From a virus: DNA of 17,361 bases. Location of the stretch: UHGV virus genome UHGV-2175977, one strand, 5' to 3'. The notes beneath the pieces were generated by a model, which had not been told where the DNA came from, made no database searches, and saw only the letters and a list, made by a program, of their open reading frames with translations. Position numbers and translations under genes: made by a program. Numbering within the stretch: the first letter of the stretch is position 1; every line of letters begins with the position of its first letter. Positions 2,126 to 6,907 of this stretch are shown here, piece after piece.

Positions 2126-4579
2126 TTAAAAATCAGCCTGATTCGGGATCAGTTTTTGTATAGCGGCTGTTACGTATTTTGCCTGGTGAAGAGCGTCATC
2201 CAGAGCATTATGGCGCACGCCTTCGAATGGAATTACGCTTCTGGCATTGAAGTCTGTGATTTTCCCCATCTCAACGATTGTGCGTACATCACGATCGTTG
2301 CTGTAATGCCACGGACAGGGGATGTCCAGACGTTCGTATGAGGTGCGCAAAATTGCGTTATCGAACGTTGCGCCATTACCCCACACCTGAACGAATTTTT
2401 CATCAGAGTGTTCATTGACGAATTCCCGAAAACGCAAAAGGGCATCTTTCATTTTTACCTGGTCAGTTAAAATGGCAGCTCTGGCTTCGCTGGACTGCTT
2501 CAGCCACCATTCGATGGTGCCACCATCAGGAACAGCCCCTGTATTCATTGCGTCAGTCAGGCTGATAACGATATAAAATACCGGCCCGATTTCCCCTGTT
2601 TCCGGGTCGAAGAAAACCGCACCAATAACTACTATGGGTGCATTGGTGTTGGTTCCCATTGTTTCAAGGTCGATCATCAGGTGATACCACGTTTTGCTTG
2701 TGGACTTATATTTGTGATGACTGGTTATCTTAATTAAGGGATTTGCCGTCTCGCCAGTTTCACTATCGCTGGCATGATGCTGATTGCCGCCAGAGTTCTC
2801 CTTGTTCTGATGCGCAGAGCCTTCCATTTCCTCTGGATCATTTTCCTGAACTTCAGGCTGATTCTCTTCATCGAACATTTCCTGGTATGTTGCGTCGCCC
2901 ATCACCACGCCACAATCAGGACAGTTGTCGACACCGCTCTGACCGCAGACGGTGCAGACTTTTTCCGGTTCCTGTTGTGCTACTGGTTCGGATTGTTTCG
3001 CTTTTGGCTCTTTTCGTTGCACATTTGGGCTGTTTTGTTCCGCTTTCTGGTCGTTCTGTTCCGATTCTTGCTGGTTCTGGTTCACAGAATCGCGGGTTTC
3101 AATCCCCTTCACCCATTTCGGATCATTCGGGTCGCTAATCCCTTCAGCAAATTCTCCGCCAGAGGTTGCCAGCAATTTGTCTTCGTCGACAGGATTTTGG
3201 GGCGGAATGTTTTTCCGGGATTCATGGAGTTCTGCCCGCAGTTTCTGATATTTCGCATCAACAGAATTCACCTGCGGCTGAGCATCCAGCGGCTGCGTGT
3301 CCGGATGATGTTCAGTTGTATCCGGTTCCACTGTTTCAGTCGTTGGCTGTTCATCTGCCATTGCGCCAGACGGTTGCGGTTTTTCTTCATCATCCTGTTT
3401 TCCTTCTTCTGTTACACGCTGCGGCATTGGGGCAGAGGAACGACCGCAGGCAATATCCACGATTTCCGGATCAGGGTTGGCATGATCGGTTTCGGTCAGC
3501 ACTTTATTCAGGTATTCGGTGACGCGGTGGGGCATAGCCTCTATACCAACCGGTGCTTCTTTCACGGAGGCAACCACGATGGCGCGGGAATAATCCATCC
3601 CGCCTGGCATGTTCAGAAAAGCCTTAAGGAAGACGGAGAAACAGGGATCATTTTCTGCGATAATTTCGTTAACACGTCTGGTATGTGAAGGATGCATGTT
3701 GTAAATATCCACATCCATCGAACGAGCCAGTTTTCCTGTAGCAACATCGAATGCCATTGACGCATTATCATGCACAAAACCTTCGCCGCGATCGGTAAGA
3801 ATACCGCCGCCAGCGTTAGCGCCGGATGGTGTGCGACTGATGCGAGAAACACGATTTCCTTTCATCCACTCTTTTGTAAGCAGACCACGATCAGTGTAGT
3901 CAGCGTCCAGGTATGCTTCGATGAAGGAGGTCATCAGTCCCAGGTCTGAATTTACGGGGGCGGGAAAAACTTTGTCAGTGTCCCGCACCAGTTTGTACAA
4001 ATCCCGAATCTCCAGCGGTTCGAGTTGCGCTGCTTTATTTGAGATGGCCAGCGCGGTAACGGCGGGAAGTTTTTCTTCCTGTGCGTTATGTAATGAGCGC
4101 AGTTCATCCCGCGAAACGTGCGTTACTGGTTTTTCGCCGCCGTGTTGCGCCAGCCAGCGAACAGGCAGAATCTGACCTGAAACCGGCAGAAGCATATTCT
4201 CCTCAATCTCAGTCATGTCTTCGCCATTAACATTGGTGTTGTCAGTGCTGGCTGGTTTGTCCTGCGCGGATGGCGGAGGCGCGATAAATATCATTGTGAT
4301 GCCATCTTCGCCGCCTTTTTCATACCGGTTACAGAATTCGGTATCAAACACGCCTTCCGGTGGAAGGTCATCAACAACGGGCAAATGGACGCGAACAGGT
4401 TTTTTAAAGTCGTCTTCATCATAATCGTTATCATCCATTGCGGTAATGCAGCGGGAGATGGCAACAGATAATTTTTTTGCTGTAGTCCAGTAAAAACCAC
4501 CTTTAATCCCAAGGCGTTTTCTGACTTTGTCATTTTTAGCTTCGCAATATAGCGCAAAAGTTTCTTTATCAGTGCTCAT
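2126..4579 (-). CDS. RecE-like exodeoxyribonuclease VIII homolog with C-terminal DEDDh (DnaQ-like) 3'-5' exonuclease domain
   Basis: 817-aa ORF, GAGG RBS 8 nt upstream. N-terminal and central parts ([19 protein letters not shown]..., acidic/Gln-rich linker, CxxC...CPDC) resemble recalled E. coli RecE; C-terminal ~190 aa carry motifs MIDLETMG (Exo I), [12 protein letters not shown] (Exo II), [13 protein letters not shown] (Exo III, H-x4-D). Confidence 0.8.
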
Positions 4580-4698: not shown

Positions 4699-4920
4699 TC
4701 ACCATGCCTCCGCCTTTACAGGTAAACCATCACGACCGAGGAAGACTTTAATCATGCGGTCAGTAATGCATGTTTTTGTAGTGAAATCACGGATATAAAG
4801 TTTTTGCTTTTCGATATTGTTTGCCGATGCAACATATGTCCGGCCTTCGTAAATAACGTAATCGCCGGGAGTGACGCACTGGCGTGGTATTTCATCGGTT
4901 CCGAAGTGATGAGCAATCAT
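4699..4920 (-). CDS. Kil-like small protein (candidate host cell-division inhibitor, KilR-like)
   Basis: 73-aa ORF with strong AAGGAG RBS 6 nt upstream; same size and position as kilR in the Rac early-left operon; identity by recollection only. Confidence 0.5.
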
Positions 4921-4965: not shown

Positions 4966-5517
4966 CTATTTAATACTCAGCAACTGCTCGACGGTCATAT
5001 TTTTAATTGCGCCCCGGTTTATGAGAGTCCATCCCTGCTTTTCCAGATAAAAACGGAAAGTATCCAGAGTACAGACCAGTGCGCCATCAGGAACGGTTTC
5101 GGTGAATTTGATGTAGCCGTGTTCGTCGAAGCGGATAACCAGGGTGCGGCCATCACCCGGGATTATTTTGTCAGCGGGTGTGGTGTTATTCCGGCGCAGT
5201 TCTTCCTCCATGCGGTCGAACTCGGCAATGTAGGCTTCCTTGAATGCAGCGGCCTTTTTGCCGGTGAAGCCCATCACCAGGAAAACGAAGCCGTTTTTGG
5301 TGATTTGGTAGGCATTGTAGGTATTGCCACGGTGCTCGAATTTAACCCGCGAAAAGTTGCTGGTTAAAAAGCGTTCAGAACATTCGAGGGCCTCTATTTT
5401 TTGAACAACATGGTGATGCTGCTTGCCGAAGAATTCTGCGATCGCAATAGACGTAGTGACAGCGCGACCATTTTCAATGGTTACGTCAGGGTGAGAAAGG
5501 GTAAGGGTAGTAGCCAT
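4966..5517 (-). CDS. Rha-family phage regulatory protein (antirepressor-like)
   Basis: ORF track gives 4966..5814, but an intrinsic terminator lies inside the 5' extension. ATG at 5517 has a GAGGA RBS 7 nt upstream and starts the conserved MATTLTLSHPDVTIENGRAVTTSIAIAEFFGKQHHHVVQKIEAL block (Phage_pRha-like). Confidence 0.6.
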   Translation of the reverse strand: MATTLTLSHPDVTIENGRAVTTSIAIAEFFGKQHHHVVQKIEALECSERFLTSNFSRVKFEHRGNTYNAYQITKNGFVFLVMGFTGKKAAAFKEAYIAEFDRMEEELRRNNTTPADKIIPGDGRTLVIRFDEHGYIKFTETVPDGALVCTLDTFRFYLEKQGWTLINRGAIKNMTVEQLLSIK

Positions 5518-5684
5518 GATGGCATCCTCAAGTGTTAAGTTAATTAACTCACCACCGAGGCTTTCCACGACCATAAGGGTGGCGAGACGTACAGGGGTGG
5601 AAATACCGGTCACTCGAGAACCCGGCCAGCCTTGCAGCTGCCCTGCACGCCCCACCATTATCTGAATGTGGCTGTGCATTACGC

Positions 5685-5709
5685 ATAAAAAAACCGCTTC
5701 GGCGCGGTT
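5685..5709 (-). terminator. Intrinsic terminator for leftward transcription (tL-like)
   Basis: On the minus strand AACCGC-gccgaa-GCGGTT hairpin followed by TTTTTTTAT (plus-strand 5685-5709). Confidence 0.5.
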
Positions 5710-5964
5710 ATGCGCTCGAGTAACTTTCGGGTTTCCACGCCCGGCACCCGTTTTATGAGGTGCAGGTGCACTATAATTCCACCCGTACTGGTTTTCAATA
5801 GCTACATTCAACATTTTCTCTTACCTTTCATCACCGAAGTGAACTTTGTTGATGCGGTACCTGGTGCCTCCAGGCGACGTTAACCAGTCTGTGTCCGGCG
5901 CACGCACTCCACCTCACCCGTGGAGAAGTCATTAATTACCAACCCTGGCCTTGTTGATTAGCTG

Positions 5965-6183
5965 TTAACGCGGGTATGTAATCATTCTGGCAATGCTTAA
6001 TGCCGCTGCTTTTTCCAGCCTGGTGATATCCTGCTCCAGAGCTGACAGATTTTCAGCCTCCTTAGCCCTGGCTTCATTGGCCCACTTCAGGTCCTGCGCA
6101 GCCTGAATTTTCCGGCGCATCCACTCATAAAGTTCATCATCGGTATAGTCTGGCGAGATGATGACGGGTTCTCGCTTCTGCAT
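5965..6183 (-). CDS. Hypothetical small early-left protein
   Basis: 72-aa ORF, first gene downstream of the leftward promoter/operator cluster; charged, predicted helical (…KEAENLSALEQDITRLEKAAALS). Confidence 0.45.
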   Translation of the reverse strand: MQKREPVIISPDYTDDELYEWMRRKIQAAQDLKWANEARAKEAENLSALEQDITRLEKAAALSIARMITYPR

Positions 6184-6366
6184 ACTGATTTCTCTCAGTG
6201 CTGTTTCCCCTTAACGCCGGGGTAGCGGAACAAAAACCTGCTGCATAGTTAAAGTTAAACCCTGCCGTCATGTTCATACGCCTCGGGCTGGCTACTTAAC
6301 CCCTGACCACTGCCTGGTAACTCGAAGTATTGCCCTGCGTTCTGTGGGGCGGGGTAGGTTGGCAGG

Positions 6367-6413
6367 TATATAATGTACTTTGCGTTCAGTGTTGTAAAGT
6401 ACCTTAAGTACAT
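6367..6413 (-). promoter_or_regulatory. Leftward early promoter (PL-like) with three GTAC-core operator-like sites
   Basis: Minus-strand -35 TTTACA (plus 6393-6398) and -10 CATTAT (plus 6370-6375), 17-nt spacer; ATGTACT at 6373-6379, AAAGTACC at 6396-6403, AAGTACAT at 6406-6413 overlap the promoter elements. Confidence 0.4.
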
Positions 6414-6487
6414 TTTGTGTGTAAAAAAATGAGATGGAAAAAGTGAAGCACAAACCCGGAGGGGGGCGCTACCGGATTTATGCTGGT

Positions 6488-6907
6488 TTAAGAGGCTTTT
6501 TGTTTTTTCTTTCGTGCTAACTCTTCGTAAATTGCATTGTACTTCTGTTTTTTCTCCTCAAGAGTTTTTAAAAGTTCATCTGTCTCACTGTCAGGGAGCT
6601 CGTCCAGAAGGTCAATGATGATTTTTTGTCTTGGATTTAACTCCTGATAGAAACGTACCTGTCCACTTTCTTCTGTATCCTCTCCCAAAAGATAGGTTGG
6701 TGTTGTTCCAATGAGTGTTGCTAATTCCCTTAATTTCTCTCGGCGAGGAATTGTTTCGCCATTAAACCATTTGCTAACCGCTTTTGGTGTTAATTTCATT
6801 CGACGGGCAATTTCTGCCTGCCTTCCATGTTGTTCATAACCAGCGTTTTCACAGGCTAGCGCAAGCCTACTGGCGAACTCTTTACGCGCTTTATCTTCAT
6901 GAACCAT
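6488..6907 (-). CDS. Prophage repressor, XRE/CI-like HTH, no peptidase domain (RacR-like)
   Basis: 139-aa ORF divergent from a cro-like gene; HTH segment GRQAEIARRMKLTPKAVSKWFNGETIP; charged coiled-coil-like C-terminus; no Ser-Lys protease motif. Confidence 0.8.
   Translation of the reverse strand: MVHEDKARKEFASRLALACENAGYEQHGRQAEIARRMKLTPKAVSKWFNGETIPRREKLRELATLIGTTPTYLLGEDTEESGQVRFYQELNPRQKIIIDLLDELPDSETDELLKTLEEKKQKYNAIYEELARKKKQKAS

Follow-up and report, generated by a model that had tools for sequence, protein, structure and literature searches.

A known type of phage RNA-immunity module, IsrK followed by C4, precedes and probably gates a Rha-family antirepressor-like gene

The 17,361-nt viral DNA analyzed here (the window) carries on its minus strand, upstream of a Rha-family gene, a phage RNA-immunity module of an already known type, in which a putative decoy RNA, IsrK, is followed by a C4/CI-type antisense RNA. 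With a probability of about 0.7, the core of the stretch at 5518–5964 is a module of the P4/P1/Gifsy-1 type that gates the antirepressor-like Rha gene of a Rac/Qin-like lambdoid prophage, and we consider this the best explanation of the region as a whole. Read 5′ to 3′ on the minus strand, the module comprises a promoter (5798–5770), IsrK (5763–5687), C4/CI (5662–5575), two target boxes and the Rha start at 5517, a layout matching P1 c4, P4 seqA–CI–seqC and Gifsy-1 isrK–orf45–anrP. It was compared within a set of 16 phage loci (the window and 15 fetched loci, P4 included) and within a wider, RNA-anchored sample of 113 distinct viral loci. The isrK and C4 pair occurs in the same order in 15 of the 15 fetched loci.

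The IsrK-type RNA is 77 nt long (5687–5763, minus strand) and matches Rfam RF01394 over positions 1–77 with 67.2 bits, against a gathering score of 50. It folds into two hairpins and a terminator, with covariation in the 5′ hairpins. Hairpin 1 spans 5763–5744 and hairpin 2 spans 5743–5728, the latter carrying the a1 box (GUGGAAA, 5738–5732), and the b1 box (GUUACUCGAG) follows at 5724–5715. A c4-a1b1 covariance model matches the IsrK region weakly (24.9 bits, below its gathering score of 46.7) and the isrK model fits better; the RNA corresponds to the seqA leader of P4 and to the a1/b1 region of P1. An intrinsic terminator had been claimed at 5685–5709, and we find inside this interval, on the minus strand, a hairpin (5709–5692) and a U-run (5693–5687) that form the 3′ end of IsrK. 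The terminator scan by itself is not above chance (5 sites versus 3.3 ± 2.2 expected), and we credit the terminator instead because it is kept in all 16 loci with differing stem sequences. A T-run terminator is likewise present in 109 of the 113 viral loci.

IsrK is preceded by a sigma-70-like internal promoter, PisrK (5770–5798, minus strand), composed of TTGAAA, a 17-nt spacer and TATAGT, with 10 of 12 matches in a promoter scan. Its −10 hexamer ends 7 nt before the IsrK start, and transcription is predicted to begin at about 5763. A promoter-like TTGnnn, ~17 nt, TAnAnT arrangement recurs at the matching position in 16 of 16 loci; that of P4 falls on the annotated PLE −10 (2367–2372 of our P4 locus, L016). 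We take PisrK to be the counterpart of P4 PLE.

The C4/CI-type antisense RNA (5575–5662, minus strand) is separated from IsrK by 24 nt (5686–5663) and is a full-length match (1–87) to Rfam RF01695, with 73.8 bits against a gathering score of 45. Its minimum-energy fold (−44.3 kcal/mol, z −3.2) is identical to the Rfam structure, a cloverleaf in which a long closing stem surrounds two hairpins. Covariation supports this shape, as 13 of the 27 pairs show compensatory changes across 15 loci and none is broken. The b′ loop (GUUCUCGAGUGAC) occupies 5621–5609 and the a′ junction (UUUCCAC) 5603–5597. A conserved AUG inside C4 (5658–5656), equivalent to the Gifsy-1 orf45 start, is in frame with Rha in the window.

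The a′ junction can form 7-bp duplexes with a1 and with the downstream target box a2 (GUGGAAA, 5562–5568, minus strand), and the b′ loop a 10-bp duplex with b1 and an 11-bp duplex, G–U pairs counted, with the downstream box b2 (CACUUGAGGAU, 5524–5534, minus strand). Box b2 covers the Shine–Dalgarno sequence GAGGA (5529–5525) of the ATG at 5517, and it extends into a GAGG ribosome-binding site in most of the 16 loci. A conserved GGUGGUGAG (5556–5548, minus strand) is additionally able to pair with the 3′ strand of C4 (5586–5578). Across the 16 loci, a1/a′/a2 and b1/b′/b2 show three-way co-variation, and helices average 16.6 nt in cognate combinations versus 9.6 nt in non-cognate ones. The a2 copy is found in 111 of the 113 viral loci and both a-box copies in 106, with 20 a′ variants and 41 b′ variants combined in 62 pairs. 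When the window was scanned with RNAduplex for further trans targets of a′ and b′, only the antisense strand (trivially) and b1 stood out.

The 264-nt read-through RNA is predicted to fold with −105.7 kcal/mol (z −3.9), a1/b1 being paired in cis with a′/b′. The region had been described in the earlier note as a long structured stretch, which the z-scores of C4 and of the read-through RNA uphold for the central part and which fails for the distal 5815–5964 (minus strand; z +0.37). This distal part is an unstructured 150-nt spacer in which no RNA family or structure was found, Rfam matches being sub-threshold only. Judging from alignment, it is the deletion scar of a Qin-type ydfC–dicF–dicB segment that has lost dicF and dicB. 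Positions 6200–5891 of the window align with 2291–2600 of the closest relative (L002, 92% identical), and 5888–5760 with 3030–3157. The 429 bp absent from the window relative to L002 hold DicF (Rfam match at 2869–2920 of L002) and the 5′ end of dicB; the junction falls at ~5889/5890, and 5837–5888 is a remnant of the dicB 5′ end. The flanking genes are those previously described: the Rha-family gene on one side and, on the other, the 72-aa gene (5965–6183, minus strand), which is ydfC, the final gene of the leftward early operon before the stretch (RefSeq 'protein YdfC' in 100%-identical genomes; phrog_1744).

It had been suggested that Rha expression is gated by antitermination and/or a separate operator. 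Spelled out, this would mean an untranslated leader with a terminator that a protein antiterminator of the lambda N type overcomes, and a palindrome that serves as operator for a DNA-binding regulator. An intrinsic terminator does lie between the upstream operon and Rha, and the 12-bp palindrome AGTTAATTAACT at 5538–5549 is perfect and close to the Rha start, 21 nt upstream of the ATG at 5517. However, the window contains two 12-base palindromes versus 4.2 ± 2.1 in shuffles, and this one is missing from the 92%-identical relative, which reads AGTTAATCAAAT there, and from the 14 other fetched loci. Being no commoner than chance and unconserved, it was rejected as an operator; it is a chance feature of the AT-rich, unconserved spacer between the conserved GGUGGUGAG and b2.

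As for antitermination, no boxA-like site (CGCTCTT(T/A)A, one mismatch allowed) occurs on the minus strand at 5518–6480, and the 10 matches in the entire window do not exceed the 5.9 ± 2.6 expected by chance. The locus resembles the lambda N/nut arrangement at pL in that accessory genes of an early leftward operon lie behind a terminator, whereas its conserved elements are antisense RNA boxes and not nut sites. These conserved parts are explained by a promoter-like sequence of the module's own, common to the 15 relatives, and by two curated RNA families with co-varying target boxes; a selected open frame, described below, also crosses the region. We consider control by antiterminator and operator very improbable. 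What persists of the proposal is that Rha expression is gated, to which the structured RNA, the terminator and the RNA structures beside the Rha ribosome-binding site all point.

The gated gene encodes a short 183-aa Rha-family protein (4966–5517, minus strand) nested in a 282-aa ORF (4966–5814, minus strand; RefSeq WP_059327932.1), which also figures in the ORF list. The Pfam Rha domain PF09669 covers aa 120–204 of the 282-aa ORF (91.4 bits, gathering score 29.9), and the gene matches phrog_995 and PHROGs of transcriptional-regulator, Rha-like and anti-repressor families. The gene begins as P4 kil does (MATTLT...): GGAGG..CAUCAUGGCUAC and MATTLT(L/P)SHP are common to the window and P4, and GGAGGCUGCCAUCAUGGCUAC is conserved, P4 included. 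Ahead of the Rha domain, Pfam PF10554 (Ash) matches aa 14–108 with 51.6 bits (gathering score 26), and phrog_995 spans this region.

The further claim that the region lacks a convincing ORF is doubtful, and it is wrong for 5518–5814 (297 nt), which belongs to the RefSeq-annotated 282-aa ORF and is open and in phase in relatives. The long frame is free of stops in 14 of the 16 loci, whereas stops fall in 16 different codon columns in one of the other two frames and in 13 in the other, and length differences between loci are compensated to multiples of three. In the wider set, 72% of the 113 loci have the frame open throughout the module, versus 14% and 5% for the other frames, about 28% of the sampled loci being without it. 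Even within the hypervariable boxes stops amount to 1.8% in the long frame versus 4.2% and 5.7%. The ORF reaches well upstream of the internal promoter in many relatives, and the ATG at 5814 is retained with its context in the 92%-identical L002.

These observations might be read as those of a plain protein gene, in which 5518–5814 codes for a true Ash domain at the N terminus of a regulator with two domains and the RNA matches are incidental. Such a gene would account for the PF10554 match above its gathering score, the coverage by phrog_995, the 282-aa RefSeq CDS and the frame that is open in most relatives. Yet the Ash part has a dN/dS of 0.79–0.82, like the wrong frames (0.80–0.92 in the other two forward frames), in a test whose power is limited in a region already under RNA-level constraint. 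Its variable columns are also flat by codon position (0.61/0.61/0.56, with no third-position excess), versus 0.42/0.40/0.83 and a dN/dS of 0.26 for the Rha domain of the same loci. By dN/dS and codon-position variability, then, purifying selection on the Ash peptide, as would befit PF10554 as a protein domain, was not detected. What is conserved is compensatory pairs, three-way co-varying boxes, an internal promoter and a terminator, and the immunity factor of this region in P4 is the CI RNA (PMC10111431; PMC4825925). We attach almost no probability to the plain protein gene.

Selection probably keeps the Ash frame open and in phase while leaving its amino-acid sequence unconstrained, as far as these sequence comparisons indicate. 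The 282-aa ORF, whose reality had been set against the view of a non-coding stretch, is probably real in this unusual sense: openness and phase are selected, whereas the peptide is not constrained. An open frame with an unconstrained peptide fits the eta/kil logic of P4, where translation of transcripts from upstream overrides RNA immunity.

In P4, CI is encoded within eta, a constitutive promoter is internal to eta and Kil corresponds to a truncated Eta; only the upstream late promoter gives the full-length protein, and translation of Eta prevents termination (PMC10111431). The C4 profile detects relatives of CI (PMC10111431). On L016 the Rfam matches lie at 2379–2456 (isrK) and 2564–2651 (CI/C4), and the C4 match falls within the P4 immunity region, behind the annotated PLE −10. 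The window shares with P4 a promoter inside a long ORF, a leader with the first target copy, CI/C4, a second target copy and a nested short protein. The long ORF passes through both RNAs in matching register, the 84-nt difference in length being a multiple of three. The two elements differ in that P4 is a satellite phage and the window element a lambdoid Rac/Qin-like prophage, that Kil has no Pfam domain beyond Ash whereas the window's gated protein has the Rha domain, and that the spacer between IsrK and C4 measures 107 nt in P4 versus 24 nt in the window.

The long ORF and the nested Kil-like start of the eta/kil arrangement are both present in the window, where the long ORF is uncoupled from the gene before it: an untranslated scar of about 150 nt extends from the ydfC stop (5965) to the ATG at 5814. 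Coupling by an ATGA overlap is found in mEp460, cdtI and phiP27. The ATG (5814–5812) precedes the −35 hexamer (at 5798) by 14 nt, and the frame is open from there to 4966; the 282-aa ORF would therefore be carried only by transcripts begun further upstream than PisrK. It starts just after a stop, 17 codons before IsrK, and has a mediocre ribosome-binding site. Since the ORF is uncoupled and its ribosome-binding site mediocre, a P4-like bypass may be weak or lost in the window prophage.

The Gifsy-1 module (Hershko-Shalev et al. 2016, PMC4825925) resembles that of the window in belonging to a lambdoid prophage and in having an IsrK that has a promoter of its own and ends in a Rho-independent terminator, a C4-like element in the read-through RNA and an antirepressor-like gene downstream. 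There, the isrK promoter drives anrP transcription, IsrK activates translation in trans and is followed by a stable RNA, STnc1160, and the module can tip prophage induction (PMC4825925). The predicted fold of the window's read-through RNA pairs the middle of IsrK with the C4 region, as does 'structure A' of Gifsy-1 (PMC4825925). Gifsy-1 differs from the window by a shorter C4 loop, by its location downstream of Q instead of in the leftward early operon, and by a downstream protein of the ORF6N family instead of Rha, no similarity being detected between Rha and Gifsy-1 AnrP. It is the only lambdoid example that has been studied.

A further difference concerns the leader ORF. The Gifsy-1 orf45 begins at the conserved C4 AUG, is read in another frame than anrP and overlaps it at its end by AUGA; the window has this AUG (5658) in the Rha frame, and therefore no separate leader ORF with such an overlap. 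A 45-aa ORF at 5686–5549 was considered as an orf45 homologue and rejected: it lies in another frame and ends 31 nt before the ATG at 5517, its length equals that of orf45 by coincidence, and the true counterpart is the AUG at 5658.

We also considered control of the Gifsy-1 type only, in which IsrK and C4 act as proposed here, the ATG at 5814 is unused and the open frame is inherited from coupled ancestors. Rha would then be made solely from the PisrK read-through RNA, starting at AUG 5658 (230 aa) or at 5517 after remodeling of the RNA by IsrK. The start of orf45 at exactly the conserved C4 AUG argues for this version, as does the A107C mutation of that AUG, which lowers IsrK activation of anrP translation from 114-fold to 20-fold (PMC4825925). 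So do the in-frame position of AUG 5658 and the long ORF of the window, which begins 17 codons before IsrK, after a stop, behind the deletion scar and uncoupled. Against it, the frame is maintained across the 16 loci and in 72% of the 113, often from well upstream of the promoter; the ATG at 5814 and its context are kept in L002; and P4 genetics show that an upstream-initiated long ORF is functional (PMC10111431). We judge this version unlikely, though worth keeping in view.

P1 has a separate small gene, icd, that has to be translated for ant to be expressed; in the window the target falls directly on the Rha start. The other points of comparison with P1 are drawn from Rfam family membership and from citing papers. 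As far as the immI regions of P1 and P7 (c4, icd, ant) are described in the papers that cite the original work (Citron and Schuster 1990, via PMC8201110 and PMC7313666), they resemble the window in their RF01695 RNA, in the a1b1/a′b′/a2b2 layout and in a second target placed over the ribosome-binding site either of an antirepressor gene or of the gene that precedes it.

From these comparisons we infer promoter activity, termination, C4 processing and translation from one or more of the in-frame starts at 5814, 5658 and 5517, in the following manner. Transcription would start from PisrK near 5763, and the first 77 nt would form IsrK with its two hairpins, a1, b1 and the terminator. By analogy with the known systems, most PisrK transcripts in a lysogen would end at the terminator and yield IsrK, and those that read through would be processed to C4. 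C4 would pair with a2 and b2 and block ribosome binding, and Rha and the downstream genes would therefore be silenced. Since IsrK carries copies of the targets that would act as decoys, its level relative to that of C4 would set the threshold; the sign of its action, as activator or decoy, is taken by analogy with Gifsy-1. Firing of the repressor-controlled leftward promoter upstream of ydfC would give transcripts that contain the ATG at 5814. Ribosomes would then cross IsrK, the terminator, C4 and the target boxes in the Ash frame and override the RNA gate, and this bypass would yield the 282-aa Ash–Rha fusion, as Eta is produced from the late promoter of P4. The Ash peptide would be a by-product, with selection acting only on the openness and phase of the frame.

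We tentatively extend this interpretation, at slightly less than even odds, to the 'Ash protein family' (PF10554) as a whole. The N-terminal third of many annotated Rha and antirepressor proteins may be a ribosome corridor over IsrK/seqA and C4/CI and not a protein domain, and the prophage may make up to three nested Rha isoforms. If so, the RNA would dictate the Ash sequence, and any transcript started upstream could be translated through and disarm the immunity gate. The nested isoforms of 282, 230 and 183 aa would each report a different promoter or RNA state, and the P4 eta/kil trick would extend to lambdoid prophages generally.

For the window itself, the main value of these findings is a correct annotation. 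RefSeq annotates the region only as a 282-aa 'Rha family' CDS, and the RNA genes are absent from it; we interpret the region as two regulatory RNAs, an internal promoter and a terminator that would decide whether an antirepressor-like protein is produced. Modules of this kind set the immunity specificity of prophages. A 'domain' curated in Pfam appears to be what results when RNA genes are translated, in a frame that is kept open without constraint on the peptide, which calls for caution in annotation. The wider point is modest but useful: the Ash case offers a testable example of translation overriding RNA-based repression.

The interval 5518–5964 is bordered on one side by a 72-aa gene (5965–6183, minus strand; ydfC in RefSeq) and on the other by the Rha-family gene (minus strand, start ATG 5517), and holds an isrK–C4/CI immunity module of the type already described for P1 (1990), P4 (1990s) and Gifsy-1 (2016). 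An Rfam scan of the whole window at gathering thresholds returned two adjacent minus-strand matches, isrK (RF01394, 5763–5687; 67.2 bits versus a gathering score of 50) and the C4 antisense RNA (RF01695, 5662–5575; 73.8 bits versus 45). A sigma-70-like promoter, PisrK (TTGAAA, 17-nt spacer, TATAGT; 5798–5770, minus), lies 7 nt ahead of the isrK 5′ end. The terminator that an earlier note had placed here is present and corresponds to the 3′ hairpin (5709–5692, minus) and U-run (5693–5687, minus) of isrK. Fold prediction, proposed in that note as a check, agreed with both Rfam families, as C4 by itself is predicted to form a cloverleaf identical to that of Rfam (−44.3 kcal/mol, z −3.2) and IsrK two hairpins followed by the terminator. 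The regulatory RNA region is real and already explained, and standard Rfam models detect such modules.

The idea of a single long structured stretch holds for the isrK–C4 part and fails for 5815–5964, where we found no significant fold (z +0.37) and no Rfam match of note. Relative to E. coli THO-006, its 92%-identical closest relative, the window lacks 429 bp (2601–3029 of the THO-006 locus L002) holding the DicF sRNA gene (an Rfam match) and the dicB 5′ end. The deletion junction falls at ~5889/5890, and window 5888–5760 aligns to THO-006 sequence just downstream of the gap. Positions 5837–5888 are a dicB remnant common to many phages; a few unrelated phage records (Rac-SA53, POCJ13, vB_EcoS-666R9 and D6) match it at 88–94% identity.

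DNA searches recovered the segment at 100% identity in several E. coli chromosomes. Of 5,426 complete E. coli genomes, 392 cover at least 80% of its length, and 163 phage records contain parts of it. We fetched 15 phage and prophage loci (including Stx-converting phages, mEp460, cdtI, phiP27, 1720a-02, P88-like, a Yersinia phage, PA2, PhiR12_1 and P4), with Gifsy-1 fetched separately from these; isrK followed by C4, both above gathering scores, was found in all 15. The P4 C4 match lies within the immunity region and its isrK match is the leader directly downstream of the annotated PLE −10; the two Rfam profiles are reported to pick up CI and seqA relatives (2023; PMC10111431). Across the 16-locus alignment of the window with these loci, a promoter-like sequence at the equivalent position and the terminator are each kept in 16/16, and the terminator stem occurs in four or more sequence versions. 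In C4, 13 of 27 pairs carry compensatory changes and none is broken, and the IsrK 5′ hairpins covary too.

The most informative signal in the sequences is the joint covariation of two short boxes, each present in three copies on the minus strand. The a box comprises a1 (GUGGAAA, 5738–5732) in the loop of IsrK hairpin 2, a′ (UUUCCAC, 5603–5597) in an unpaired junction of C4 and a2 (GUGGAAA, 5568–5562) downstream of C4. The b box comprises b1 (GUUACUCGAG, 5724–5715) in IsrK, b′ (GUUCUCGAGUGAC, 5621–5609) in a C4 hairpin loop and b2 (CACUUGAGGAU, 5534–5524) downstream, overlying the Shine–Dalgarno GAGGA of ATG 5517. This scheme is that of P1 c4 (a1b1/a′b′/a2b2) and of P4 (seqA/seqB/seqC). In every locus of the alignment all three copies of each box change jointly, and cognate helices average 16.6 nt versus 9.6 nt for non-cognate ones. 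A scan of viral contigs (IMG/VR) with a pattern anchored on the C4 core alone gave 113 distinct loci, among which both a-box copies occur in 106 and a T-run terminator in 109; their 20 a′ and 41 b′ variants make 62 pairs. The specificity boxes are combinatorial: the window shares its a′ with mEp460 and Stx2a_1447 and differs from them in b′, a pattern suggestive of mosaic immunity types and of possible cross-talk among elements sharing a host. Some contigs (among IMG/VR L034, L035, L054 and L080) carry two or three tandem C4 cores spaced by ~656 nt, and L080 has two C4 copies 3.2 kb apart.

The earlier note saw no convincing ORF here; 297 of the 447 nt nevertheless fall within a 282-aa ORF (4966–5814, minus) that RefSeq annotates as a single 'Rha family phage regulatory protein' CDS, with no ncRNA over 5518–5814. 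This long frame is the Pfam Ash frame (PF10554, 51.6 bits, aa 14–108). From the first IsrK base it is stop-free in 14/16 loci; each of the remaining two frames contains 0–7 stops, over 16 and 13 different codon columns, mostly polymorphic. Counting from IsrK +1, the conserved ATG is a multiple of three nucleotides away in 13/16 loci although single indels are not multiples of three (−2 and +11 nt in P88_4B11); the P4 segment is longer by 81 nt in total. In 72% of the 113 viral loci the frame is open over at least 105 nt ahead of the anchor and at least 141 nt beyond it (other frames, 14% and 5%), and in 65% it runs on into the downstream gene for 400 nt or more (1–4%). Depletion of stops extends even to the hypervariable boxes (1.8%, versus 4.2% and 5.7% in the other frames).

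Selection on the peptide is a separate matter. In the Ash frame dN/dS is 0.79–0.82 (wrong frames, 0.80–0.92) and variability by codon position is flat (0.61/0.61/0.56), whereas the Rha domain of the same loci has a dN/dS of 0.26 (wrong frames, 1.3–1.4) and the usual third-position excess (0.42/0.40/0.83). Together with the openness of the frame, these alignments indicate an ORF that is kept open and in phase, encoding an Ash peptide free of selection whose content is dictated by the RNA. The earlier note would have counted a real 282-aa ORF as its refutation, and the outcome is split: the frame is maintained, and its peptide is not selected. Translated isrK and C4 RNA genes are what the Pfam 'Ash protein family' and PHROG 995/821 models pick up.

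P4 is the precedent for this open-frame logic, and the geometry in the window is equal. The P4 gene eta contains the CI RNA and, internally, the constitutive promoter PLE; read-through yields Kil, a truncated Eta, full-length Eta is translatable only from the upstream late promoter, and its translation blocks termination (PMC10111431). In the window, the −35 hexamer of the internal promoter follows ATG 5814 at a distance of 14 nt, and PisrK transcripts are therefore unable to encode the long form. The P4 kil start aligns with ATG 5517, with the common N-terminus MATTLT(L/P)SHP. In mEp460, cdtI, Stx2a_1447 and phiP27 the long ORF begins further upstream with an ATG overlapping the stop of the preceding gene, resembling the coupling of P4 to its alpA homologue; in the first three this places the module within a ~383-aa ORF. 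At ~840–2000 of the fetched loci of Stx2a_1447, mEp460, cdtI and 1720a-02 (L004, L006, L008 and L011), the module belongs to the rightward early operon and is flanked by a cII-like gene and replication gene O; the IsrK terminator there would occupy the position of lambda's tR1.

Gifsy-1, the studied lambdoid case, represents a second architecture (PMC4825925). The conserved AUG in the 5′ strand of C4 is the start of its orf45, with the register unchanged; the shorter C4 loop of Gifsy-1 puts orf45 out of frame with anrP and has it end in an AUGA overlap. The window's copy of this AUG (5658) shares the Rha frame, and a start there would yield a 230-aa form. A 45-aa ORF (5686–5549, minus), beginning directly after the terminator U-run and overlapping C4, equals orf45 in length only, being in another frame and unrelated to it. 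The predicted fold of the read-through RNA (5763–5500; −105.7 kcal/mol, z −3.9) pairs a1 and b1 in cis with a′ and b′, a modeled pairing that is the same as in Gifsy-1 'structure A', which was shown to be translationally silent (PMC4825925).

Read from sequence and from comparison of the loci, the parts of the gate are in place: promoter, IsrK with decoy boxes and terminator, C4 with unpaired a′ and b′, target boxes including b2 over the ribosome-binding site, and an open in-phase long frame. By analogy with P1, P4 and Gifsy-1, PisrK would produce mostly IsrK in the lysogen, read-through RNA would give C4 that occludes the Rha ribosome-binding site, and the IsrK:C4 ratio would set the threshold. 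A repressor-controlled leftward promoter upstream of ydfC would supply transcripts containing ATG 5814, on which ribosomes may read across the entire module and so circumvent the RNA gate. One candidate for this promoter lies at 6398–6370 (minus; TTTACA, 17-nt spacer, CATTAT), between a DicA/CI-like repressor gene (6488–6907) and ydfC; with the repeated GTAC-containing motifs seen by eye across 6184–6487 (minus), it could make up the early promoter for leftward transcription and the operators belonging to it. The weak point of the bypass here is that ATG 5814 stands behind a 150-nt untranslated scar, uncoupled from the upstream gene.

The earlier note had suggested gating of Rha by antitermination and/or a separate operator. 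We found no boxA-like site on the minus strand of 5518–6480. On the evidence, gating through RNA and translation is more likely than antitermination by a protein. The palindrome put forward as the operator, AGTTAATTAACT, does occur at 5538–5549, in an AT-rich variable spacer between b2 and a conserved GGUGGUGAG (5556–5548) that can base-pair with the closing stem of C4 (3′ strand). It is statistically unremarkable, as shuffles give 4.2 ± 2.1 palindromes of 12 nt and the window two; at the equivalent site the closest relative has AGTTAATCAAAT and none of the 14 other fetched loci has a palindrome. Because it is absent there from all 15 relatives, we dropped the operator reading and treat the palindrome as a chance feature.

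Rha is followed downstream by a gene for a Kil-type FtsZ inhibitor (phrog_294; RefSeq 'Rac prophage Kil'; 4699–4920, minus) and an 817-aa ORF (2126–4579, minus) that RefSeq splits into a RecE-family exonuclease and a 3′–5′ exonuclease; elsewhere in the window, adjacent plus-strand genes encode tRNA-Met (CAT anticodon, 15370–15445) and tRNA-Arg (TCT, 15447–15523). If the gate acts on transcription as well, the Kil-type gene and the 817-aa ORF would share the regulation of Rha. The novelty is mild and quantitative: most loci keep the Pfam Ash frame open with no constraint on the peptide, which would carry the eta/kil logic of P4 over to lambdoid prophages.
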